A DNA stretch of 64,000 nt from Candidatus Gottesmanbacteria bacterium (GTDB lineage Bacteria > Patescibacteriota > Microgenomatia > UBA10105 > UBA927): assembly GCA_963790805.1 (NCBI GenBank), contig CAWBPL010000002.1:696-64695 (forward strand), written 5' to 3'. A program made the translations under genes and the position numbers. Shown here one piece after another: positions 3,468-40,522 of this stretch (position 1 is its first letter; each line of letters opens with the position of its first letter). Under the pieces are notes generated by a model. That model was given only the letters and a program-made list of their open reading frames with translations. It made no database searches and was not told the DNA's origin.

Positions 3468-4151
3468 TTACATTAACCCTTTTTCCTTAAAACTCATATA
3501 TCCCGACGAAGAAACTATAAAATGGTCTATAACAGGTATTCCTGTTAGTTCGCCGACCGATTGAAGGCGCTGTGTAAGTCTCAAATCTTCATCTGAAGCT
3601 TCCAAATCTCCGGAGGGATGATTATGTGCAATCATTATACGTGCGGCTAATAAGCGCACTGCTGGTTCAAACACCTCTCTCGGATGTACCAACGTTTCAT
3701 TAAGTGTACCTATCGAAATATCATTAATATGAATAAGATTGTTTTGAGAATCTAATAAAAGAACAATAAAATGCTCTTTCTTTTCTCTTCCAAGTTTTTC
3801 TCGAAGATAATCAGCAACTTTTTGAGACGAAGATAAAGAAATCTTAGTCGGCAATTTTTCTCTTGCATATCTCTCTGAAATAGCCTGAAAAAGCTTAATA
3901 CCAAAAGCGTTTGATGGTCCAATTCCCTTAATAGTTTGTAGCTCAACTAACGAAGCATCGAGAACACCTCTTAATCCTCTAAATTTTTGAATTGCCGCCT
4001 TAGCTATTTGTTTACAATCTTTACGTGGTGTGCCGAGAGTCAGTAAAAGCTCAATAATTTCGTAATCCAAAAATCCATCCAATCCCGACTGTAAAAATCT
4101 GTCTCTTAATCGTTTTCTATGACCAGCATTTTTATATAAATTCTTGGGCAT
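3468..4151 (-). CDS. radC: RadC-family JAB/MPN domain protein
   Basis: HhH-like N-terminus (GIGPSNA) and JAMM motif HNHPSGDLEASDED. I place the start at ATG 4151 (MPKNLYKN); the track uses TTG at 4163. Confidence 0.85.
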   Translation of the reverse strand: MPKNLYKNAGHRKRLRDRFLQSGLDGFLDYEIIELLLTLGTPRKDCKQIAKAAIQKFRGLRGVLDASLVELQTIKGIGPSNAFGIKLFQAISERYAREKLPTKISLSSSQKVADYLREKLGREKKEHFIVLLLDSQNNLIHINDISIGTLNETLVHPREVFEPAVRLLAARIMIAHNHPSGDLEASDEDLRLTQRLQSVGELTGIPVIDHFIVSSSGYMSFKEKGLM

Positions 4152-5446: not shown

Positions 5447-6145
5447 TTACAAAATGTTTCCCGATGATCCCTCAAATGCGTTAATCCATGTCCCGTGCCC
5501 GCTGGCGGTATAAATCCAACCCCACCACGGCTGTGCGAAACCCGTATAACTCGGTCCAAAGTACTGCCCAATCCAATCGACGCGGCCCGCACCGCAAACT
5601 CCGGCTAAATTACAATCGTAATTAAACGTTCCGACATTTCCGGTTTTCGGCCATAACGTCGTTGAAAGAAGTGTCCCGTTAAATGTCGCTCTGTATCCGC
5701 CGTGCATTTCTCCCTCTACATCCGATCCGATAATTCCCGTTCCGGCCGGACCCGTCTGTTTGTAGAATGCATTGAAGTGCCCGTTGTCATACAAAACAAT
5801 CGCGCACCACGACGTATCTCCTGTTGACCACGCCTGTATATGGCGCGTGTACCCTTCGACGTTCCAGTAATTTCCTACAGGACTTGGAAAATAGACATTT
5901 GCTCCGAATCCGGAATCCGTATCGTTTTGCACTCTTTGCGTAATGTCGATAACCGGCTTGCCTAATTTGTCTCCGCAAGCTGATTTTGATAACTGGTTAT
6001 CCGGATTAAAATTACCGTTAAAATGTCTGCCGTTATCTCTGTGTCCGAAATTCGGCCAGTCAAATGCAAATACTTTTGAAGAATAGGAAGCAAACGCGAC
6101 AACTACTAAAGAAATAAGTGAAAGAGCTAAAAGAATCTTTTTCAT
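5447..6145 (-). CDS. secreted hypothetical protein (Trp/Gly-rich)
   Basis: Signal peptide MKKILLALSLISLVVVAFASYSSKVFA. AGGAGGTG lies 7 nt upstream of the ATG. Confidence 0.7.
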   Translation of the reverse strand: MKKILLALSLISLVVVAFASYSSKVFAFDWPNFGHRDNGRHFNGNFNPDNQLSKSACGDKLGKPVIDITQRVQNDTDSGFGANVYFPSPVGNYWNVEGYTRHIQAWSTGDTSWCAIVLYDNGHFNAFYKQTGPAGTGIIGSDVEGEMHGGYRATFNGTLLSTTLWPKTGNVGTFNYDCNLAGVCGAGRVDWIGQYFGPSYTGFAQPWWGWIYTASGHGTWINAFEGSSGNIL

Positions 6146-6253: not shown

Positions 6254-6916
6254 ATGAATAAAAAAATCGGTGCTCTTATCGTAATAGTAGTTCTCCTTCT
6301 TCTTGGCGGCGGGGCGTACGTCATGATGAATAAATCAAAAACGGCTCCGGCAGCAATGGTGCCTGCAACGACTCCTTCAGGAAATACAGAAACAGCCTCT
6401 CAGGTCAAAGGCACACTTAAAAGCCTTATAACCAGTGCGGTTCCGCAAACCTGTTCGTTCACCAACGATCAGGGCGCGAGCGGATCAGTTTTTGTCTCCG
6501 GCGGAAAGATGCGCGGAGATTTCAGCTCGACCAGTAACGGGAAGACATTTTCCGGCCACATGATTATCGACAACGGGTACAGCTATCTCTGGTCGGATGC
6601 GATGCAACGCGGAATGAAAATGGCCCTGAACGCTGTCGAAACGACCACAGCGCCAGCCCAAGGCGGCATGGACGTCAACCAGCAGGTATCCTATTCCTGC
6701 AAACCATGGATACCGGATGCGTCAAAGTTTGCACTTCCTGCTAACGTTACGTTTACGACATTCACCATGCCGAATGCAGCAGCTCCAAGCGGAGTTATGC
6801 CGACCGGAACATCAACGAATGGCGCAAGTGCGCCGTCAGCAGCATGCAGCGCATGTGACAATTTGCCGGCAGGTCCTGCTCAAACCGCCTGCAGAACGCA
6901 GCTTCACTGCCAGTAA
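6254..6916 (+). CDS. membrane-anchored exported hypothetical protein
   Basis: N-terminal TM MNKKIGALIVIVVLLLLGGGAYV and a Cys-containing C-terminus. An alternative GTG start is at 6236. Confidence 0.65.
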   Translation: MNKKIGALIVIVVLLLLGGGAYVMMNKSKTAPAAMVPATTPSGNTETASQVKGTLKSLITSAVPQTCSFTNDQGASGSVFVSGGKMRGDFSSTSNGKTFSGHMIIDNGYSYLWSDAMQRGMKMALNAVETTTAPAQGGMDVNQQVSYSCKPWIPDASKFALPANVTFTTFTMPNAAAPSGVMPTGTSTNGASAPSAACSACDNLPAGPAQTACRTQLHCQ

Positions 6917-8587: not shown

Positions 8588-9523
8588 ATGTACCACGAGA
8601 GGCGTGTGAGTAAAAAAGGAAGTTGTTTTTCAAGAGTGTTATTTATTTTCATCCTTTTTGCGGCAATAACCATCTGCATTTTTTACATTAAAAGCCATTG
8701 GACCGAATTCGTTTCGCCTTTAGCAGAAGATCATGAAAAAAGCACGTCACTCATGGGGCTCATCCATCACGAAAAAGACCCCGATGAACTCAAAGAAAAA
8801 GTGAAAGCCATGGTCGGAAACGTATGGAACAACTATTCCGTTTACGTTGTCGATTACAAATCACCTTTTACGATGGGTATTAACGAATCGACAATATTCA
8901 CCGGAGCGTCCGTCAATAAAGTGCCGATTCTGGCCGCCGTCTATGCCGAAGCGAAAAAGGGAAACGTGGATTTCAACAAAGTTATTACGCTCCAGCAGGA
9001 TGACATACAGGACTACGGCACCGGAAGCATCCGCTATGACCCGCCGGGCACAACGTATTCCGTGAAAACTCTGGCACGGCTTATGATGCAGAAAAGCGAC
9101 AATACCGCGGCTCATTTGCTCGCGCTCTACATCATAGGGCTCGACGTCGTACAAAAGTACGTCAATGGCTGGGGCATGACGCAAACCGATATGGCAAATA
9201 ATCTGACGTCCAATAAAGACATGGAAATACTGTTCCGGAAAATCATGAACGGGCAGATATCAACGCCTGCTCTTAACGAGGAAATGCTGGGATTTTTGAA
9301 AGACAGCGATTTTGAAGACAGGATTCCGGCACTTCTGCCGAAAGACGCCGTTGTCTATCACAAGGTCGGCACCGGCACCGGCACCGTTCACGATGTCGGC
9401 GTTGTCGTTTACGGAAACACGGAATATTATATCGGAATATTTACTGACAGCATTACGGACGAAGAACAGGCGTCATCGCAGGCAGCACAACTTTCAAAAA
9501 TGATATTCGACTACATGAAGTAA
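8588..9523 (+). CDS. class A beta-lactamase-related serine hydrolase (membrane anchored)
   Basis: SxxK (SVNK), SDN (SDNTAA) and KxG-like (HKVGTG) motifs in the correct order. Confidence 0.75.
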   Translation: MYHERRVSKKGSCFSRVLFIFILFAAITICIFYIKSHWTEFVSPLAEDHEKSTSLMGLIHHEKDPDELKEKVKAMVGNVWNNYSVYVVDYKSPFTMGINESTIFTGASVNKVPILAAVYAEAKKGNVDFNKVITLQQDDIQDYGTGSIRYDPPGTTYSVKTLARLMMQKSDNTAAHLLALYIIGLDVVQKYVNGWGMTQTDMANNLTSNKDMEILFRKIMNGQISTPALNEEMLGFLKDSDFEDRIPALLPKDAVVYHKVGTGTGTVHDVGVVVYGNTEYYIGIFTDSITDEEQASSQAAQLSKMIFDYMK

Positions 9524-9527
9524 TGCC

Positions 9528-11942
9528 TTACGCGGAAAGCTTACGAGACGGCTTCAGGGGTTTTGCCAGAGCGAGGCTCAACACTTCATCCATATGTTCG
9601 ACGAAGTGAAACGTCAGATCTTTTTGAACGCTTTGCGGAATATCTTCTAAATCCTTTTTATTGTTCTTGGGCAAAAGTACCGTTTTTATGCCGGCTCTGT
9701 GTGCAGCGATAACTTTTTCCTTGACTCCGCCGATTTCCAGAACGCGCCCGCGGAGCGTAATTTCCCCAGTCATCGCGACTGTCCGTTTTACGGGAATTTT
9801 GGTAAGCGCCGAAACAAGCGCCGTGCCGATTGCCGCTCCGGCAGAGGGCCCGTCTTTGGGCACTGCTCCTTCCGGCACGTGCACATGGATATCAATTTTC
9901 TGGAAAAACTTTTCAGGAAGCCCGAACATCTGCCAGCGGCTGCGGACATAGGAAAGAGCGGCTTGAGCAGATTCCTTCATAACGTCACCGAGCTGTCCAG
10001 TGAGAGTAAGTGTTCCGCGTCCCGGCATAATGGCAACTTCAATAAAAAGTATCTCGCCGCCGGCTTCCGTCCACGCCATACCGGTCGACATGCCGACTTC
10101 ATCGGTTTTCTCCGCAAGATATGACGCAAACTGATACGGTCCTAAATATTCATGGAGAGATTTGGGCGTAATGGTATACGTAGTGTCTTTTTTATCATCA
10201 TCGGCAATTTTCTTGGCAATTTTACGAAATACCGTTGCAATTTCCCGCTCAAGGCTTCTGACTCCTGCTTCGCGCGTATAACGTCGGATGATTTCCTGAA
10301 TAGCCGGATCGGTAAGTTTCACGACGCCCTGCGGAATGCTGTGGATTTCGCGCTGCTTCTCATACAAAAAGTCTTTACCGATATGGAATTTCTCATCCTC
10401 GGTATAACCCGCAAACCGGATGATTTCCAGCCTGTCGCGAAGTGCCGGCGGAATGGTATCCAGCAGGTTACATGTCGTTATGAAAAATACGTCGGAAAGA
10501 TCAAACGCAACCTCAAGGTAATGATCGGAAAATGCGAAATTCTGCTCAGGATCCAGTGCTTCAAGAAGGGCCGATGACGGGTCACCGCGGAAGTCCGTGC
10601 CCACTTTATCGATTTCATCGAGCATAAAGACCGGATTTTTCGTCCCCGCCTGTTTTATGCCCTGAATAATGCGTCCCGGAAGCGCGCCCACATAGGTACG
10701 CCTGTGCCCGCGGATTTCCGCTTCATCGCGGATGCCGCCCAAAGACATTTTGACGAATTTGCGGCCAAGCGCTTTGGCTATAGATTTGCCGATGGATGTT
10801 TTGCCGACGCCCGGAGGACCCACGAAACAAAGAATGGTCGGTGATGCTTTGCCCTGACGGGTTTTTTTATCTTCCGGTTTTTCGTCTTTTTTTTCACCCT
10901 CATCTGCTTTCGATCGAAGCTTCATCACGGCCAGATACTCGATAATACGTTCCTTGATTTTTTTCAGTCCGTAATGGTCGTGGTCCAGAACTTTTTCGGC
11001 ATCATGAATATTAACGTTGTTGGGACTGGCTATTCCCCATGGAAGTTCAACGAGCATATCGAGGTATGTGCGCACATATGACGCCTCAGGATTATACGGC
11101 GACATCTGCGCTAGGCGGGAAAGCTCTTTTTCGGCTTTCGCGCGAACGTCCGAGGGCATACCGGATTTTTTGATTTTATCCGCGAGCTCTTTAATGTCTT
11201 TGTTTTCATCGTCTTCGCCCAGTTCCTTTTCAATTGTTTTCATCCGCTCCCGAAGCACCTGTTCGCGGACGTTTTTGTCAAACTTTTCCTGCGTCTTGTT
11301 GGCGATTTTTTTCTCCAGCTCCAGAATTTTGGTTTCTCGCGACAGATATGTGATTTCTTTTTCCAGCCGGTCTTTCACCGATGTCGTCTCCAGTAAATCC
11401 TGCCGTTCATTGGGTTTGATATCCAAAACTCCTGCGACGTGATACGAAAGAACAAGCGGCGACACTCCCGACATAATATTCATAAACGTCAGAAAATCCA
11501 TGGTCTTGCCCAGTTTCACGGCTGTGCGAAGTTCGTTGGTCAAATGGTTAAAAAGCGCTTTGGTTTCATCGGATTCATCTGACGCATCGGTAATGGGCAG
11601 CACGCGCGCGATAAAAAACGGTTCGACCGTTTCATAGGAAAGCACCTGTACTTTGGAAATACCCCGCACGAGGGCGTTAATTTCCCCCTCATTTTTCATC
11701 ATCTGGACGATCTCACCGACTGTTGCGATCTGGTAAAGATCAGAAGGCGTCGGGTCATTGATGTTGGGGTTTCGCTGCATGACGAGAACCACCTTTTTGC
11801 CTGTGGTTTCTGCTGATTCTATTGCAGAAACGGAACGCTGGCGGCCGAATGTCAAAATCATTTCCGTGCCAGGAAATACGATGCCGTCGCGGATCGGAAC
11901 TACCGGATACAGTTGACCATTTGATTGTTGAATTTCATCCAT
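9528..11942 (-). CDS. lon: ATP-dependent Lon protease
   Basis: 804 aa with LON N-domain, Walker [10 protein letters not shown], and catalytic-Ser context [10 protein letters not shown] with downstream K. Confidence 0.97.
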
Positions 11943-30221: not shown

Positions 30222-30312
30222 CCTGAAAATCACGCTTTCGCGAGGCTAAAAAACAGGATTTGGAGTATAATAAGCTGTATTGCGGGATCGAAATTAATAT
30301 AGTGGGCAACGC

Positions 30313-30383
30313 TGCGGGATCGTATAATGGTAGTACGCATCCCTCTGGAGGATGTTATCTAGGTTCGAGTCCTAGTCCCGCAG
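30313..30383 (+). tRNA. tRNA-Gln (anticodon CTG)
   Basis: Manual cloverleaf: acceptor TGCGGGA/TCCCGCA (U1-A72, G73), D arm GTAT-AATGGTA-GTAC, anticodon arm CATCC-CTCTGGA-GGATG, T arm CTAGG-TTCGAGT-CCTAG. No encoded CCA. Confidence 0.85.
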
Positions 30384-30391
30384 CGTTGCCC

Positions 30392-30492
30392 AATACAAAT
30401 GGTAGTAAGTCCCGCTTTGCGGGATTATCTAGATTCGCCCGCCTGCAACGCTATGCGTAGCATTGCGGGCAGGAGTCCTAGTCCCGCAGCCA
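30392..30492 (+). other. degenerate tRNA-Gln-like copy with a 36-nt hairpin in the T loop and an encoded CCA
   Basis: Shares AATGGTAGTA, TTATCTAG and the 17-nt GAGTCCTAGTCCCGCAG with the tRNA. It lacks a 5' acceptor strand in register and lacks a 7-nt anticodon loop. Hairpin at 30438-30473. Confidence 0.45.
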
Positions 30493-30494
30493 AT

Positions 30495-30950
30495 ATGGAT
30501 ATTCAAATTAAAAAATCGACCGACACTGTCGCCGCATTAAGTATTGCCAAGAAAAATCCCCACTACTTCAATTCTCATGGCATAGAAATGATGGAAAAAG
30601 ATTTCAAAACAGCACTTCTCATAGGTGCCTATTCTGAAAATAAACTGTTAGGGTTAATCGCGTTTAAGGAGTTGAATGACAAGGCTGTAGAGCTCGCTTG
30701 GATAGCAGTAGATCCAGATTACCATGATGAAGGAATAGGTGCGCTCCTTGTAAACGAAGGCGTTAAATTACTCCCCAAAAAATATGTTGTTTGTGAAACA
30801 AAAACGTTATCGGAAATTGACCCCGATCCACAATACGCCAGAACGAGAAACTTTTACAAAAAGCTGGGATTTATACCATTAGAAACTATTAGTCCATATC
30901 CAGATTGGGGAAAAGACAATCCGTGTCAAATTTTTGTTAAGATTTTATAG
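30495..30950 (+). CDS. GNAT-family N-acetyltransferase
   Basis: ELAWIAVDPDYHDEGIGALLV (acetyl-CoA motif A). Start taken at MDIQIKK; upstream codons of the track ORF run through the tRNA-like DNA. Confidence 0.8.
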   Translation: MDIQIKKSTDTVAALSIAKKNPHYFNSHGIEMMEKDFKTALLIGAYSENKLLGLIAFKELNDKAVELAWIAVDPDYHDEGIGALLVNEGVKLLPKKYVVCETKTLSEIDPDPQYARTRNFYKKLGFIPLETISPYPDWGKDNPCQIFVKIL

Positions 30951-31059
30951 GATTAATTGGTGCTAGACCGGCACGCTCAGCACAACTTGAAATTCACGTA
31001 ACCGTACCCTCAAACTCCGCGGCTTTATAAAACCCGTTATTTATAATACACTCTTATCG

Positions 31060-32375: not shown

Positions 32376-35300
32376 ATGGTAGAGATTGTGAGAAAACTAC
32401 TATACCTTCTCATTGTCTCGTTCTTTTTTATACCTCTCTCATCTGTTTTCGCCGCTACCGCTACCGTCCCTGTTACGTTCCGAAGCGTTGATTCCTGTTC
32501 ATCCAACAATGTCGCGTCCGGTAAATTCGGTGTTGATAACGGATGCACGTTTATAGCAATCGGCCAGCCGGATTTTAGCGCCATTCCATCAGGTTCGTTC
32601 ATAACTTCCGTAAGCATGAACTATTTAAACGGATCTAATCTCGTCCCTCCGTTTCCGCAGTCGAATTGGCCGGTAGCTGTATTTAGAAGTAAAAATAACA
32701 CATTAAATGATACGACCACGTTCGCTCAGGCAAATACGTCTAGCGATTTCACGCAATTCGGGACGGACCTTATTTTTAATGGTAATTTTTCGATTTCCGT
32801 TCCGGAATTTCAAAACCTGTTTAATTCCAATAAGGGATTTATTATTGAAAAAACAACATCAACCAATAATGAATTTTTATCATCGTTTGCTTCGTTTACG
32901 TTGAACGTAAGCTATTCACCTACCCCTACCCCCACACCTACGACCGGTTCCGTTACCGTTCCTGTTACATTCCGGAGCGTTGATTCCTGTTCATCCAACA
33001 ATGTCGCGTCCGGTAAATTCGGTGTTGATAACGGATGCACGTTTATAGCAATAGGCGAACCAGATTTTAGTTCGGTTCCGTCAGGGGTTACCATAACCTC
33101 CGTAAGTATGAACTATTTAAACGGTTCTAATCTCGTTCCGCCATACCCTCAATCGAATTGGCCGGTAGCAGTCTACAGAAGTACAAATACCATATTAAAC
33201 GACACTACAACATTTACCGAAGCGAATACCCCAAGTAATTTCGTTCAGTTCGGGACAGACTCTATTTTTAATGGTAACTTTTCGATTTCCGTTCCGGAAT
33301 TTCTAAACCTGTTTAATTCCAATAAGGGATTTATTATTGAAAAAACCACCACGACGAACAACGAATTTTTGTCATCGTTCGCTTGGTTTGCATTAACAGT
33401 GAATTATTCGATTTCAGAAACTCCCACACCGACACCAACGCCCACACCGACGCCTACTCCCACACCGACATTGACGCCAACTCCAACGCCCGCACCCTCT
33501 GTCACGTATACAAATCACATTCCTGCATTAGACGCTTCTCATGTAGTGAGCACCACGGATGCAGGCTATCCTGGCTATTCCGCTTTTAATTCATTTAACC
33601 CTACAGGTTCCAATATCGCCTCATGGGATATGAATATTGAATGGCTCACAAACCAGGCTACTTCCAATCAACGAATTAATGTTGATTTAGGAGACTCCTA
33701 TATTATTCGTAATATCTGGTACGTCAACGGTCACTACTTTAATGTGACTGATCCTGGTGCAAAAGACTTTACGTTTTGGGGTTCAAATTCACAATCTAGT
33801 TTTGCAACTGATTCATATAATAATGACACCGGATGGACCCAACTGCCCACCTCTGCCGATCATTTTGACGCGTATCCGCTTCCGGATACCGGAGAAAATG
33901 GAAACATAAACGTTTCCAATGATACGCCATACAGATATTATTCAATCAAAGTTGCCAACAACTATGGTAGTCCGTACTATATCGGTATTCGTCGGATTAT
34001 TTTACAAACCGAAGATGGATATGTTCCATCGTCTCCGACACCAACGCCAACCCTGACCCCGACGCCAACTCCAACGCCGACGCCAACGCCGACACTAACT
34101 CCAACACCCACACCGGCACCAGGCCACACGTTTACCGTCACGACAACCAACATGACCAATGACGGAGCATGTACGGACATCCTTTGTTCTCTTATTGACG
34201 CCATCAACGCAGCAAACGATGAAACGAATTATCCCGGGCCGAATACCATTAATTTAGCCACGGGCGCAACGTATAATTTTACGAACTATGACAATGCGTA
34301 TTACACGCCAACCGCGCTTCCCGTTATAACATCAACAATAACAATAAACGGTAATGGTTCAACACTGACGCGAGATCCATCGGCGTCTCCGTTTCGATTG
34401 ATTTATGAGATTTCACCAGGAAATTTGACGATGAATAATCTGACTGTTACGAACTTCTCTTCGACGAATTCAGGTGGAGCTATTTATAATTATCAGGGGC
34501 AATTGACTCTTAATAACACAACTTTTTCCAACAATTTAGTCCTTGGATCCGGAGGCGCAATTGCCAGTGATAACCTAACCGTCAGTCATAGTACATTTAC
34601 GGATAATGTTGCAAGGCCCGGAGGATTGGCTTGGGGTGGTGCCATTGCGACGGATGGAAACGGATCGATAAGTGACAGTACGTTTAGCGGAAATCTTGCA
34701 GATCGCGGCGGAGCGGTATCATATTGTGATGGAACGGAGACAGTGACGAATTCCACATTTAATAACAATACTGCGGTTAGCGGGGGCGGCTTCAGGAGTT
34801 GCGGAACATCAGCTATATCTAATAGCATATTTTCCAATAACTCAAGTACCGGAGGCGGAGGCGGAGCCATCGAGAACTACAGTCGACTCGATACGACGAG
34901 TGGCAACATGACCATTTCCGGATCGACGATTTCCGGCAATACTGCACCAAACGGCGACGGCGGAGCCATCCTAAATGAAGCCAATGGTATATTGACCATA
35001 TCTGACAGTATGGTAACGAATAACTCCGCCGGAAGCGCAGGGGTGCTTTATAATGATGCGTCCACTGCGACGATCACACATGTAACCATGACAAACAATT
35101 CCGCAACGAATCTCGCAGGGGCAATATTTACAAATCCTTCTAACACATTGGGAGGAATTTCCCTTTCAAACAGCACCATATCCAACAATACCGCCCTTAC
35201 CGCAGGAGCATTGTATGAGACAGGCGGGACCATCACTGTTTCTAATACCTCCATAACGAATAACGTGGCAACGTCCGGTAACGGAGGAGCGGTTCTCGTT

Positions 35301-36944
35301 CAATACGGTTTAAATGAAGGCGGTATGACGCAAATAAATAATAGCTGTATTTCGGGAAACAGTAATCAAAGCGTCAAAAATAATACGGGTGACACGTTGG
35401 ATTTCACCGGTAATTGGTGGGGCGCACCAGATGGCCCTTCTGGAGCAGGCTCAGGTTCGGGAGATTCCATAAGCAACAATGTAAACTATGCGTCCTTTTT
35501 AACCACGCCTCCGAATGGTTGTCCATACAACAATAATGTTACTCCGACCCCGACGCCAATACCTACAACACCAACCCCCACACCGACATCCTCCCCCACC
35601 CTTGCAATTGATACGGGTGGATCCGCAAGCGGCAATTTTCTTTCAGACACTGATTTCAGCGGCGGGCAACCATTTACATCAACGGCAAGTGTTGACACAA
35701 GTTCTCTCTCGAATCCCGCGCCACAAGCAGTCTACCAATCAGTCCGATACGGCAACTTTAGCTATACAATTCCAAATCTCACTGCGAATGCAGATTATAC
35801 CGTCCGGCTCCATTTCAATGAATTATATTGGGGAACATCGCTATCAGGTAACAGCGGAGGAATCGGAAGCAGGGTGTTTAATGTTTCAATGAACGGGCAG
35901 CAGGTTTTAAGTAACTTTGATATCTATCAGACGGCGGGAGGATCAAATATTGCAACCGTGCAGCAATTCCCGACAACCGCCGATGTAAACGGGAATGTGA
36001 CTATTCAATTCACGAGCGTTGTTGATAACGCTATGGTCAATGGAATAGAACTGTACAGCGGAATATTACCTTCTCCAACGCCAACTCCCACGCCGACACC
36101 TGTTTCCTCTCTTGCAATTGATACGGGTGGATCTGCAAGCGGCAATTTTCTTTCAGACACTGATTTCAGCGGCGGGCAAATGTATACATCTACAGATCCT
36201 GTGGATACCAGCGGAGTGTTAAATCCTGCTCCGCAATCAGTTTACCAGTCCGTCAGATACGGCAACTTTAGCTATACAATTCCCAATTTGTTTCCCAATA
36301 CAAACTATCTGGTAAAGCTTCACTTTAATGAGCTTTACTGGAATAGTGCAGGAAGCAGAGTATTCAATGTTTCGATTAACGGGCAGCAGGTTTTAACCAA
36401 CTTTGATATTTATCAGATGGCCGGCGGAAAAAACAAAGCGGTTGCAAGACAGTTTCTTGCCGCTTCAGATGCGACCGGCAAAGTCTCTCTCGTATTCTCG
36501 ACCGTTGTTGATAATGCCATGGTCAACGGTATTGAGCTTTCTTCGGCAAGTTCAATACAAACATATTCATTGACTGGTACCGTGTACGTCGATACGAATC
36601 AAAACGGCGTTCAAGATGCCGGAGAAAGCGGCTACAGTGGCGCTACGGTCACGCTGGATAACGGACAAAGCGCTGTGACAGATGCCGACGGTAATTATTC
36701 TTTTTCAAATCTGCCAACTGACATCTATACCGAAACGTTAACTCTTCCCGCAGGTTACACAACAACCACTACCGACCCTGCGAGCGTTACGTTAAACGCA
36801 AATACAACCCAAAATTTTGGAATAGCTCAGGGGAATATTGATATTAATGCCGGCGGAGCAAGTAGCGGCGATTTCCTCTCGGATAGGATTTTAGCGGCGG
36901 GCAACCATATACGACGACAAACGCTGTTGATACATCCGCCGTGA
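32376..36944 (+). CDS. giant exported multidomain surface protein
   Basis: Signal peptide, two ~150-aa repeats (one per 164-aa period incl. PT linker) of unknown type, discoidin-like region, Pmp-like beta-helix (GGAI/FxxN repeats), malectin domains (SVRYGNFSYTIPNL..HFNELYW..VDNAMVNGIEL) and an SdrD-B/CnaB-like domain (VYVDTNQNGVQD). The frame breaks near 36885. A GTG at 32388 is an alternative start. Confidence 0.85.
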   Translation: MVEIVRKLLYLLIVSFFFIPLSSVFAATATVPVTFRSVDSCSSNNVASGKFGVDNGCTFIAIGQPDFSAIPSGSFITSVSMNYLNGSNLVPPFPQSNWPVAVFRSKNNTLNDTTTFAQANTSSDFTQFGTDLIFNGNFSISVPEFQNLFNSNKGFIIEKTTSTNNEFLSSFASFTLNVSYSPTPTPTPTTGSVTVPVTFRSVDSCSSNNVASGKFGVDNGCTFIAIGEPDFSSVPSGVTITSVSMNYLNGSNLVPPYPQSNWPVAVYRSTNTILNDTTTFTEANTPSNFVQFGTDSIFNGNFSISVPEFLNLFNSNKGFIIEKTTTTNNEFLSSFAWFALTVNYSISETPTPTPTPTPTPTPTPTLTPTPTPAPSVTYTNHIPALDASHVVSTTDAGYPGYSAFNSFNPTGSNIASWDMNIEWLTNQATSNQRINVDLGDSYIIRNIWYVNGHYFNVTDPGAKDFTFWGSNSQSSFATDSYNNDTGWTQLPTSADHFDAYPLPDTGENGNINVSNDTPYRYYSIKVANNYGSPYYIGIRRIILQTEDGYVPSSPTPTPTLTPTPTPTPTPTPTLTPTPTPAPGHTFTVTTTNMTNDGACTDILCSLIDAINAANDETNYPGPNTINLATGATYNFTNYDNAYYTPTALPVITSTITINGNGSTLTRDPSASPFRLIYEISPGNLTMNNLTVTNFSSTNSGGAIYNYQGQLTLNNTTFSNNLVLGSGGAIASDNLTVSHSTFTDNVARPGGLAWGGAIATDGNGSISDSTFSGNLADRGGAVSYCDGTETVTNSTFNNNTAVSGGGFRSCGTSAISNSIFSNNSSTGGGGGAIENYSRLDTTSGNMTISGSTISGNTAPNGDGGAILNEANGILTISDSMVTNNSAGSAGVLYNDASTATITHVTMTNNSATNLAGAIFTNPSNTLGGISLSNSTISNNTALTAGALYETGGTITVSNTSITNNVATSGNGGAVLVQYGLNEGGMTQINNSCISGNSNQSVKNNTGDTLDFTGNWWGAPDGPSGAGSGSGDSISNNVNYASFLTTPPNGCPYNNNVTPTPTPIPTTPTPTPTSSPTLAIDTGGSASGNFLSDTDFSGGQPFTSTASVDTSSLSNPAPQAVYQSVRYGNFSYTIPNLTANADYTVRLHFNELYWGTSLSGNSGGIGSRVFNVSMNGQQVLSNFDIYQTAGGSNIATVQQFPTTADVNGNVTIQFTSVVDNAMVNGIELYSGILPSPTPTPTPTPVSSLAIDTGGSASGNFLSDTDFSGGQMYTSTDPVDTSGVLNPAPQSVYQSVRYGNFSYTIPNLFPNTNYLVKLHFNELYWNSAGSRVFNVSINGQQVLTNFDIYQMAGGKNKAVARQFLAASDATGKVSLVFSTVVDNAMVNGIELSSASSIQTYSLTGTVYVDTNQNGVQDAGESGYSGATVTLDNGQSAVTDADGNYSFSNLPTDIYTETLTLPAGYTTTTTDPASVTLNANTTQNFGIAQGNIDINAGGASSGDFLSDRILAAGNHIRRQTLLIHPP
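32466..33410 (+). repeat. tandem duplication of a ~150-aa N-terminal domain (period 492 nt)
   Basis: Copies start at 32466 and 32958 (VPVTFRSVDSCSSNNVASGKFGVDNGCTFIAIG). About 80 nt is identical, flanked by more diverged sequence. Confidence 0.9.
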
Positions 36945-39778: not shown

Positions 39779-39877
39779 GCTCCTCTTTTACCCGATTCGA
39801 GCCACGATCCGATGGTAAAACCAATAACAATGATTTCGCGGGAATAAGCGGCGATGATATAATGAATTTAGACCGGC

Positions 39878-40522
39878 ATGTTCAGTAATATTCCTTCTTT
39901 GGAAATAAAAAAAATCATGCAAAACAGGATCCGATATATTTTTTTTGATTTAGGCGGTGTCTTCTTTGAATGGAATACGTATTTCACAAATGCTGCTGAT
40001 ACGTTTCACATTGACCGGCTGCAAATGGCCAAAATATTCGACAACTATGATGAGCAAATAACCAGAGGATTCATGACCCCGCAGAAATTTTGGGAAAAAT
40101 GTCAAGAAGAATTGCATGTAAACAATGCAGGAAATTTTAATTTTTTAGCACGTTGGGTAGATGATTATATACCGATAATGAGCACTCATATCTTCGCAAA
40201 AGAATTAAACAGAAAATACAAACTGGGAATCATATCGAACACCTATAAGGGGATGTACCCGTTGTTGATCGAAAAAAATAAGGTTCCAAATATTTCATTT
40301 GACGTTAAAATCTTATCCTGCGACGCAGGTTTCCAAAAACCTGAAAGAGAAATATACAGACTGGCTCAAAGTAAAACTCCGGCTAATAATAATGAAATAT
40401 TATTCGTTGATGATTCGGACAATTATTTAAAACCGGCGAAAAAGATGGGGTGGCAAACGTTTTTATTTGATACGAACAATGTAGACAAGTCTATTACGGC
40501 TATCCAATCCATGCTCGGGTAA
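39878..40522 (+). CDS. HAD-superfamily hydrolase (subfamily IA-like)
   Basis: Motif I FFDLGGV, motif II ISNT, motif IV FVDDS. An alternative start is at 39917 (MQNRIRY). Confidence 0.8.
   Translation: MFSNIPSLEIKKIMQNRIRYIFFDLGGVFFEWNTYFTNAADTFHIDRLQMAKIFDNYDEQITRGFMTPQKFWEKCQEELHVNNAGNFNFLARWVDDYIPIMSTHIFAKELNRKYKLGIISNTYKGMYPLLIEKNKVPNISFDVKILSCDAGFQKPEREIYRLAQSKTPANNNEILFVDDSDNYLKPAKKMGWQTFLFDTNNVDKSITAIQSMLG

Follow-up and report, generated by a model that had tools for sequence, protein, structure and literature searches.

A 64,000-nt stretch of a Candidatus Gottesmanbacteria genome (assembly GCA_963790805.1, contig CAWBPL010000002.1, positions 696 to 64,695 of the forward strand; hereafter the window) carries one tRNA gene, a tRNA-Gln(CUG), which lies nested inside the remains of an older tRNA-Gln and upstream of a gene for a GNAT acetyltransferase. 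The intact gene is enclosed by a helix between its own leader and trailer, here called the clamp, and the older copy persists as four fragments (30281-90, 30398-409, 30425-37 and 30474-89) with self-complementary inserts in all three loop regions of the old cloverleaf. The un-invaded form of the unit is found in a relative, and the nested layout recurs in other genomes of the candidate phyla radiation (CPR), in part together with a small open reading frame (ORF) for a GIY-YIG nuclease. We consider it fairly probable that a nuclease once drove the invasion or duplication of a tRNA gene here and that the locus in the window is the relic, now devoid of the nuclease; the clamp would insulate the working tRNA, and the GNAT gene would be co-transcribed with it. 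In window coordinates, the locus consists of the following parts, with the older copy called outer and the intact copy inner.

30266..30271, + strand: TATAAT -10 element of the ancestral tRNA-Gln promoter, 9 nt 5' of the outer 5' fragment (read directly)
30281..30290, + strand: outer (ancestral) tRNA-Gln positions 1-10, TGCGGGATCG, an exact repeat of inner positions 1-10
30291..30312, + strand: inserted leader, of which 30300-30312 form the 5' arm of the clamp helix (inverted repeat)
30313..30383, + strand: inner intact tRNA-Gln(CUG), the functional gene (ARAGORN; Rfam RF00005)
30384..30397, + strand: inserted trailer, of which 30384-30395 together with G30383 form the 3' arm of the clamp helix
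30398..30409, + strand: outer D-loop and D-stem piece AATGGTAGTAAG, positions 14-25 (direct repeat)
30410..30424, + strand: 15-nt GC mini-hairpin TCCCGC-TTT-GCGGGA in place of the outer anticodon arm, positions 27-43 (read directly)
30425..30437, + strand: outer variable loop, 5' strand of the T stem and first 4 nt of the T loop, TTATCTAGATTCG, positions 44-57 (direct repeat, 12/13 identical)
30438..30473, + strand: 36-nt GC-rich palindrome Z, inserted behind TTCG in the T loop of the outer copy; one of a dispersed family
30474..30489, + strand: end of the outer T loop, 3' strands of T stem and acceptor stem and discriminator, AGTCCTAGTCCCGCAG, positions 58-73 (exact repeat)
30490..30494, + strand: 5-nt spacer CCAAT holding a genomic CCA (30490-92), compared with orthologous spacers
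30495..30950, + strand: GNAT acetyltransferase gene, 151 aa (Pfam Acetyltransf_1, _7 and _10)
30959..30981, + strand: 23-nt repeat GGTGCTAGACCGGCACGCTCAGC, the 3' boundary of the GNAT cassette; the motif also lies 3' of GNAT in relatives

All features that a preliminary description of this DNA had listed are present, displaced by at most 1 nt. ARAGORN and Rfam agree on the inner gene at 30313-30383 (anticodon CTG; RF00005 with 60 bits and E = 1.8e-10, gathering score 29), which is the sole tRNA in the window and has no encoded CCA. It has U1-A72 and G73 (T30313, A30382, G30383), which are among the identity elements of bacterial GlnRS. The acceptor stem is extended by nine perfect pairs between GGGCAACGC (30304-12) in the leader and GCGTTGCCC (30383-91), and the 5' decamer recurs at 30281-90. 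The broken copy retains the D-loop repeat AATGGTAGTA (30398-407), the T-arm piece at 30425-37 with one mismatch and an exact 17-nt repeat of the tRNA 3' end, GAGTCCTAGTCCCGCAG (30473-89). This 17-mer has two copies in the 64 kb compared with 0.05 expected, and folding of the 223-nt region against shuffles gives z = -6.7. One assignment needs correction: in the broken copy, the acceptor stem has its 3' strand at 30482-88, and G30489 is the discriminator. Neither ARAGORN nor Rfam matches the broken copy (30392-30492), even at E <= 10, and it no longer qualifies as a tRNA: the anticodon arm is gone, with the mini-hairpin in its place, G53 is mutated to A (within 30425-37) and the T loop is divided by 36 nt. 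An Rfam search of the region on both strands at E <= 10 returned nothing besides the tRNA. The broken copy would now be at most a hairpin-rich 5' untranslated region (UTR) of the GNAT transcript.

The ancestral state is preserved in a relative, L444 (L numbers designate the loci compared here), whose GNAT protein falls in the same 90% protein cluster as that of ACD_37. Here, GGGGTATAAT with its TATAAT is followed after 8 nt by a single ordinary tRNA-Gln (229-299), by CCCAT and by the ATG of the GNAT gene. The promoter surroundings in the window, TTTGGAGTATAATAAG, are orthologous to TTTGGGGTATAATACG in L444; the L444 promoter segment aligns with window 30259-30274 and its junction of tRNA end and GNAT matches window 30474-30497. 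The ACD_37 contig, L205, starts inside a tRNA-Gln that leads straight into GNAT (...TCCCGCAGCCCATATG), with the same 3' junction as in L444. Judged against L444, 30281-90 and 30474-89 sit at the 5' and 3' ends of the original gene, which identifies the broken copy as the ancestral tRNA-Gln and the intact tRNA, the clamp and the two GC hairpins as material inserted into it. The preliminary description had proposed a decayed duplication or the remnant of an insertion; this is essentially right with its polarity reversed, as L444 and the recurrent nests indicate that the wreck is the original gene. The inner tRNA is identical at 69 of 71 positions to the tRNA of L204 and to that of L444. Its T16 and G58 are shared with the outer copy, L444 having C16 and A58, suggesting that the inner copy was derived from, or homogenised with, the resident gene and pointing to a local copy or to gene conversion. 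These loci with near-identical tRNAs thus differ in the insertion: it is missing from L444, present as a nest lacking an ORF in the window and as nests containing ORFs in L204.

Independent assemblies break inside this tRNA: Logan contig L001 ends at about window 30349, and the ACD_37 contig begins in the D loop. The same strain is represented in ERR11594402. The breaks are probably caused by the nested repeats, and nested tRNA loci will be under-represented or truncated in short-read assemblies.

The nested layout is found at seven other tRNA-Gln genes at six loci in other CPR genomes. With the shared 17-mer, at least 112 full tRNA-Gln genes were recovered from a set of one genome per species; the 3'-end sequence is common across phyla, and the matches provide a background set. 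Among the matches listed, a leader-trailer extension of at least 6 bp is present in three genes besides that of the window, all three from CPR bacteria and all accompanied by fragments of their own tRNA. In L061 (Vogelbacteria), TGCGGGATCG is followed after G10, at the same point as the insertion in the window, by a Z-type hairpin (CCCGCCCGCAACGCC...GGCGGACAGG), behind which lie a D loop, an intact tRNA with its clamp and a 3' copy of 44 nt. In L042 (Terrybacteria), a diverged outer copy has its T loop interrupted after TCCG by a long helix that encloses the clamped tRNA; the site is that of the palindrome in the window. In L086 (Giovannonibacteria), outer positions 1-21 and a hairpin precede a piece reaching the anticodon stem, after which come a GIY-YIG ORF, a clamped tRNA and a 3' fragment; L037 (Saccharibacteria) comprises a hairpin-studded 5' half ending at the anticodon, a 78-aa GIY-YIG ORF, an intact unclamped tRNA and a 3' fragment. 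L204 carries two units (A and B) of broken pieces with hairpins, GIY-YIG ORF, leader, tRNA-Gln and pairing trailer, one of which ends in a 3' fragment 14 nt before another GNAT gene. L442, in which a variant acceptor stem is common to outer and inner copies, and L443 were located by a protein-database search with a spurious ORF spanning the nest of the window; ORF callers yield such spurious proteins across nested loci.

Depending on the locus, the insertion follows position 10, 21, about 25, 36-38 or 57, and the T loop is a recurrent break point (window, L042, L204 B and L443). Rfam searches of L037, L042, L061, L086, L204, L442, L443 and the window matched tRNA alone, which excludes group I introns. 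We found no description of this arrangement in the literature on tRNA introns and intervening sequences in CPR bacteria and on GIY-YIG genes in Patescibacteria; nested tRNA-Gln genes with a conserved clamp, GC palindromes and minimal GIY-YIG genes in CPR appear, as far as that literature goes, to be a recurrent architecture not yet described.

The clamp opens with the pair C(-1)-G73, in which G30383 is the discriminator base, and lengthens the inner acceptor stem by 9-12 bp. Allowing one mismatch, the helix 30300-30319 / 30376-30395 spans 20 nt with 95% complementarity, and the clamp has a predicted base-pair probability of 1.0. In an ungapped alignment of leader, tRNA and trailer from eight loci, the 12 extension pairs are 89.6% paired compared with 33-47% in slid controls, seven pairs have changes on both sides and the observed covariation is reached by no shuffle, figures that are inflated because four of the eight loci were picked for having the helix. 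Non-Watson-Crick cells comprise 14 G·U, 3 A·C and 7 others; the excess of G·U over A·C is the bias expected of RNA pairing on the tRNA strand. A constant pattern, CA..GC / tRNA / GC..TG, encloses the covarying pairs, and in L204 a single leader sequence pairs with two different trailers. The extended helix noticed in the preliminary description is absent from the un-invaded relative L444, yet conserved and covarying in the nested loci (L037 excepted). Among 97 tRNA-Gln genes of this type, complementarity over the first 10 leader-trailer positions is at chance level (3-4/10) in 88 and reaches at least 8/10 in nine. Fragments of the gene's own tRNA accompany seven of these nine clamped genes and 10 of the 88 others (Fisher p = 4e-5), so that the clamp is almost confined to nested genes. 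Phage contigs bearing this tRNA-Gln have no clamp.

Folding in silico suggests what the clamp may do. The inner acceptor stem forms with a probability of 0.975 with the native clamp and of 0.445 on average when leader and trailer are randomised, and mispairing with the extra acceptor strands appears in the randomised folds. Since the transcript holds three copies of each acceptor strand, the clamp would force the correct strands together. These predictions support an action of the clamp at the RNA level, insulating the working tRNA; it may also be an entry site for an RNase III-type enzyme. Leader-trailer helices enclosing stable RNAs serve in processing elsewhere, as RNase III stems around bacterial 16S and 23S rRNA and as bulge-helix-bulge stems around archaeal rRNA and tRNA. 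Like them, the clamp is a long, covarying helix; unlike the rRNA stems, it encloses one bacterial tRNA, and unlike the archaeal stems, it prolongs the acceptor stem and has no bulge-helix-bulge motif. A helix of 16-20 bp lies at the lower limit of what RNase III accepts. We know of no covarying leader-trailer helix described around a single bacterial tRNA. If this picture of the locus holds, the clamp raises the questions how RNase P and the 3'-end enzymes reach tRNA ends locked in a duplex of this length and whether CPR bacteria use RNase III in tRNA maturation.

The GC-rich hairpins belong to types that recur in dead copies. In the window, palindrome Z has no second copy and the 15-nt hairpin is the single occurrence of its kind. 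Hairpins of the same 15-nt format, TCCGCC-NNN-GGCGGA, lie in the broken tRNA-Gln copies of L204 and L443, and L204 and L086 share a third type, TCGCCTC...GAGGCGG, behind G21. In the cellular loci compared, hairpins of the Z type are confined to tRNA-Gln fragments (L037, L061 and the window). A two-arm pattern scan of IMG/VR revealed a family of the palindrome, a scan of viral contigs with a single 14-mer arm having given mostly chance matches. At least 14 distinct 36-nt variants are present in IMG/VR contigs and L037; the IMG/VR copies lie in unrelated contigs of 48-64% GC, outside tRNAs. The copy in L424 is identical at 34 of 36 positions, the two differences forming a compensatory pair (A11-T21 -> T11-A21). 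L326 and L037 also carry copies; the L037 hairpin matches the window palindrome at 26 of 36 positions, both 9-nt arms included, and L037 has Z inside a Z-like hairpin. The palindrome is modelled as a 9-bp outer stem with a fixed C·A mismatch and a 4-bp inner stem with one covarying pair, structural support being modest as outer stem and mismatch were imposed by the search pattern; this fits better than a fully paired 16-bp hairpin, which did no better than shuffles. BLAST of the 36 nt against annotated plasmids and phages gave no meaningful match, and no GIY-YIG genes were found beside the palindrome in viral contigs. Some copies lie between similar short direct repeats (L257, with GGACACAGA on both sides), others do not, and no transposase was identified. 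As a separate observation, the family (CCCGCCTGC..GCGGGCAGG) is multi-copy in several IMG/VR contigs, for example at L257 4250-4285, L424 5081-5116 and L326 1619-1654.

We regard the hairpins, by analogy, as mobile GC-rich palindromes, and the composition and distribution of the 36-nt palindrome mark it as an apparently foreign, dispersed element. Mobile GC-rich palindromes in AT-rich genomes are known as the GC clusters of yeast mitochondria, as Rickettsia palindromic elements and as hairpins resembling repetitive extragenic palindromes (REP) or miniature inverted-repeat transposable elements (MITE). Like these, the CPR hairpins are short (15-60 nt), foreign in composition and dispersed, they insert into RNA genes and into each other's loops, and they occur where homing-endonuclease genes are found. 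The likeness drawn is one of behaviour, with no sequence relationship found or sought. As differences, the hairpins in the CPR sample were seen only inside dead tRNA-Gln fragments, and neither a transposase nor a clear target-site duplication was identified. They might lower recombination with the live copy or keep the decoy RNA inert; alternatively, hairpin insertions into the live copy may be lethal.

Other identities for these elements were considered and dropped. A circularly permuted tRNA, in which TCCCGC-TTT-GCGGGA would resemble a 3'-to-5' acceptor junction, fails because the 15-nt format recurs with other stem sequences (TCCGCC...GGCGGA) and hence is not acceptor-derived. A transfer-messenger RNA or YrlA-like tRNA mimic has no ARAGORN or Rfam match, an integron attC site would need R'/R'' core sequences, which are missing, and targeting of the TCG tetranucleotide by an IS200/IS605-type element does not fit with the lack of a transposase and the inconsistent flanks in other contigs.

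The link to a nuclease comes from the relatives. A GIY-YIG ORF of 78-93 aa lies inside four of eight nests at three loci (L037, L086 and both L204 units, in L204 at 2072-2344 and 3593-3835), and L075 has a GIY-YIG gene just downstream of a tRNA-Gln that is not nested. SegB, a GIY-YIG enzyme of phage, makes its cuts inside tRNA genes, its sites being enriched in the motif RAWTSGAAC, and drives recombination-dependent segmental amplification of the tRNA gene together with segB (PMC13096335). SegB homologues are strongly enriched beside tRNA genes (PMC13096335). By our reading, RAWTSGAAC is the reverse complement of the T-loop consensus. The CPR loci resemble the free-standing homing endonuclease SegB of phage T4/T6 in having a GIY-YIG gene beside or inside tRNA genes and in breaks that recur in the T loop. 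They differ in their setting, which is cellular chromosomes and not phage, in the size and content of their ORFs (78-93 aa, catalytic domain only), and in the product, where fragments of the old gene surround a clamped replacement in a nest and do not form tandem units; the window, moreover, lost or never had the nuclease gene.

From these comparisons we infer the following course of events. The original unit consisted of a promoter, one tRNA-Gln(CUG), 5 nt and the GNAT gene. A break in the tRNA-Gln gene would have been repaired by copying a cassette and a full replacement tRNA between the broken ends, the old gene being left behind as flanking fragments. In the window, a complete tRNA copy with pairing leader and trailer would have entered after G10, the anticodon arm would have been replaced by the 15-nt GC hairpin and the T loop would have received the 36-nt palindrome. 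The nuclease ORF would since have been lost, the window thus representing a later state, in which the inner copy is the working gene and GNAT would be read through from the tRNA promoter. A bolder version is conceivable, if rather doubtful: CPR selfish elements might invade tRNA genes and bring along a replacement tRNA, clamped so that it matures properly amid decoy tRNA fragments in the transcript, with the 78-93 aa GIY-YIG protein driving their spread and the palindromes disabling the leftovers, and the window might hold a domesticated, nuclease-less survivor in which the element's copy is the only tRNA-Gln(CUG) in the locus. The minimal nuclease would in that version possibly be structure-specific for cruciform or cloverleaf tDNA. 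If a nuclease-driven invasion is indeed the origin of the nests, an essential tRNA gene has been taken over by mobile DNA without loss of function, by bringing its own replacement, a strategy different from self-splicing introns and from the repair of att sites by integrases; it would also offer a testable role for the many tiny stand-alone GIY-YIG genes beside tRNA genes in the sampled CPR loci.

Several observations weigh against a nuclease-driven origin. A search of six-frame ORFs with a hidden Markov model found no GIY-YIG ORF in the window, so the nuclease link rests wholly on relatives. The CPR GIY-YIG ORFs are almost fully covered by PF01541, that is, by the catalytic domain only and with no recognisable DNA-binding domain, so that site-specific cleavage is putative. 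Insertion points vary between loci, which fits repair-mediated events and not one fixed homing site. L037 is nested and nonetheless lacks a clamp, and the selection behind the clamp figures leaves L204 A, L204 B, L442 and L443 as the loci found independently. A nuclease gives no account of the origin of the GC hairpins or of their confinement to dead copies, and the systematic sampling covered tRNA-Gln loci only.

Further GIY-YIG genes were seen near tRNA-Gln. In the 175-kb jumbo-phage contig L447 from IMG/VR (minus strand, reverse-complement coordinates ~9516-10000), a tRNA-Gln of the same sequence type, with no clamp, is followed after about 80 nt by a Seg-like GIY-YIG ORF (IYRITNKLNGKTYVGKH...). 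A second GIY-YIG subgroup has a conserved structured 5' region (TTCGACTCGCTNCGCTCGCTCA...; L075 6629-6730, L202 416-496), a remnant of which survives in L442 (120-190), where the ORF is gone.

The junction between the tRNA and the GNAT gene bears on how the gene is expressed. Pfam confirms the assignment of the protein to GNAT; among its 68 homologues, named for Roizmanbacteria, Daviesbacteria and an 'ACD' aquifer bin, most have 151 aa, and the 151-aa homologues begin at the same ATG (30495). The names of the homologues place the window in a Microgenomates-type CPR/Patescibacteria genome. Exact look-up of the protein (151-aa and 183-aa forms) found no match. Synteny around GNAT is poorly conserved, and most of 80 metagenome loci are uninformative on the tRNA. 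In the preliminary description, attention had been drawn to the CCA at 30490-92, which the broken copy has and the intact copy does not, and to the 2-nt gap between it and the ATG. The tRNA ends 5 nt before the GNAT ATG in L444 and L205 and 3 nt before it in L128. The spacer orthologous to CCAAT is CCCAT in L444 and L205, and many tRNA-Gln genes of this type have CCAA directly 3'. The CCA-bearing spacer thus looks inherited, and the CCA with its 2-nt gap would be a legacy of the original tRNA-GNAT junction and not a design. No sigma-70-like promoter was called between the tRNA and GNAT, as noted before, and no terminator on the + strand; the TATAAT at 30266-71 escaped the consensus scanner because it is without a -35 hexamer. 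A Shine-Dalgarno sequence at the usual distance from the GNAT start is likewise missing. Co-transcription of GNAT with tRNA-Gln is therefore likely, and tRNA processing probably sets the 5' end of the GNAT mRNA.

A functional role of the broken copy in this processing had also been suggested. Its acceptor-like helix with a 3' GCCA tail would be cut by RNase P and/or RNase Z, as in tRNA punctuation, and release a GNAT mRNA with a leader of 2-5 nt. Co-transcripts and punctuation of this kind are known from the E. coli thrU-tyrU-glyT-thrT-tufB operon, mitochondria, plant t-elements and mascRNA. L444, L205 and L128 resemble such systems in that a true tRNA lies 3-5 nt before the ORF, so that processing enzymes would set the mRNA 5' end; 3' processing plausibly does so there. 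In the window, a possible helix of TGCGGGA (30418-24) with TCCCGCA (30482-88), which leaves a G-CCA tail, has an ensemble probability of 0.58, and the missing promoter and Shine-Dalgarno sequence are compatible with such a signal. The same 3' strand also pairs in a competing fold with the outer 5' decamer (probability 0.40). In contrast to t-elements, however, what adjoins the ORF is the wreck of a tRNA whose T arm is disrupted: A53 abolishes the universally conserved G53-C61 pair, and the 36-nt insert divides the T loop, a part read by RNase P, by RNase Z and by the CCA-adding enzyme. Nor is it conserved among orthologues. The closest GNAT orthologues have a plain tRNA or none upstream, a normal tRNA standing at this place in L444 and L205, where moreover the CCA reads CCC. 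Equivalent 3' fragments in L442 and L443 have no near downstream gene start on that strand (no ORFs were listed for the locus of the L061 fragment). A processing signal in the broken copy is thus unlikely and without comparative support; what stands of the suggestion is the probable co-transcription and the probable setting of the GNAT 5' end by processing of the tRNA.

A less elaborate history would be a plain tandem duplication with neutral decay and no mobile element, the leader-trailer complementarity being a functionless product of DNA template switching at the inverted repeat of the acceptor stem. It accords with the lineage-specific bases shared by inner and outer copies (T16 and G58 in the window, variant acceptor and T stem in L442), with a trailer that replaces exactly the first 13 nt of a would-be directly abutting second copy and with the lack of a nuclease gene in the window and of an integrase gene among the ORFs scanned. 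Yet several CPR classes have the same architecture, and hairpins of common families sit at matching tRNA positions: Z-type ones follow G10 or lie in the D or T loop, and TCGCCTC...GAGGCGG follows G21 in L204 and L086. Palindrome formation at the DNA level does not predict the common clamp pattern with its covarying pairs or the ratio of G·U to A·C of 14 to 3, and the two different trailers paired with one leader in L204 and the foreign, dispersed nature of palindrome Z also speak against it. We consider duplication and decay alone improbable, somewhat more so than a punctuation signal.

The GNAT gene itself resembles a small cassette. Its orthologues are bounded by a direct repeat of 21-23 nt (consensus GGTTCTAGACCGGCATGCTCAGC), which follows the stop codon in seven related loci and the window and precedes the start in four or five of these seven. 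It precedes the start where the tRNA is absent, and L202, L204, L206, L165 and L122 have the 23-nt repeat alone upstream of GNAT. In an ungapped count, 14 of the 23 positions of the consensus agree with the final 23 nt of tRNA-Gln, and the ends are identical. Whether ...CAG is contributed by the tRNA or by the repeat, its distance to the ATG does not change; the bases after ...CAG/TAG in repeat-bearing loci are TAAAT (L204), CAAAC (L206) and CAAA (L165). From the resemblance of the repeat to the tRNA-Gln 3' end, GNAT looks like a small cassette lodged at that end, bounded in the window by the tRNA 3' end (30467-89) and the diverged direct repeat (30959-81). Copies of the repeat were also seen elsewhere (window 30959-30981 and 39866-39886; L202 395, 774 and 1265; L204 2976, 3467 and 4692; L165 629, 1477, 1969 and 2479), where they border small cassettes with genes for GNAT, GIY-YIG, HAD hydrolase and others and have the orientation of the gene in every case. 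The repeat may function as an att-like site, as a site of processing or as a 5' UTR element.

Such boundaries, together with the partial 3' copies of tRNA-Gln that are common downstream of the gene in the sampled genomes, recall the scars of integrases. Tyrosine-recombinase islands would have targeted tRNA-Gln, supplied replacement pieces and since been deleted, and the tRNA 3' end and its diverged repeat around GNAT would be akin to attL and attR. In tRNA-targeted islands, partial tRNA copies likewise flank the insert and a replacement brought by the insert preserves tRNA function. The nests differ in having no integrase: no integrase or recombinase domain is found in the nine ORFs scanned between 26.2 and 42.1 kb of the window or in the three ORFs nearest the tRNA. 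They also differ in inserts of tens to hundreds of bases and not kilobases, in the duplication of 5' as well as 3' pieces and in break points that vary between loci in place of one crossover site; GC hairpins and a covarying clamp are foreign to att sites. Integrase scars are a very improbable source of the nests. A split or intron-containing tRNA, whose outer pieces would be exons joined by bulge-helix-bulge splicing or a group I intron, can practically be discarded: the inserts do sit in loops as self-contained helices that allow an outer cloverleaf-like fold (outer acceptor pairing p = 0.40), and the break in L037 lies in the anticodon loop directly after the anticodon, but the outer copy of the window is without any anticodon arm, bulge-helix-bulge geometry is not seen at the junctions, no group I or II intron model matches any nested locus, and what comes after the ORF in L037, L086 and L204 is an entire tRNA instead of a 3' exon.

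Other elements adjoin tRNA genes in the sampled genomes. A conserved element (CCAACTCGTGCTAGGGTATCGCGCTCGAGACGCGTCGATAAAC...) lies directly 3' of tRNA-Gln in several Saccharibacteria and Parcubacteria (L029, L026, L108, L117, L032 and L042; in L029 on the minus strand, reverse-complement coordinates ~6529-6600) and belongs to no Rfam family in L029, L042 and L117. In L026, L029 and L108, a second TTCGAGTCCTAG follows about 65 nt downstream of it. A different element of about 210 nt after tRNA-Gln occurs in L099 (2381-2590) and L094 (Campbellbacteria CP011215, minus strand, reverse-complement 5588-5850). It starts with CAACGATAA and a hairpin, has an antisense T-arm copy (CTAGGACTCGAA) within it and closes with a 3' fragment of tRNA-Gln; in L094, only the tRNA's 3' half is present at the site of the element. 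In L161, a tRNA-Ser(GGA) (1356-1445) has its own 5' half (1248-1283), ending in the anticodon loop, about 75 nt upstream, with no intervening ORF and no clamp. Partial tRNA duplication is hence not restricted to tRNA-Gln.

Elsewhere in the window, 32376-36944 encodes a secreted-looking protein of 1522 aa with long Pro-Thr linkers, an N-terminal module that is internally duplicated and C-terminal domains that are repeated. Nearly every 2-kb bin of the window has a negative GC skew, and the cumulative skew falls steadily to -2.19, which recalls the one-directional GC skew reported in some Microgenomates (PMC7143001).

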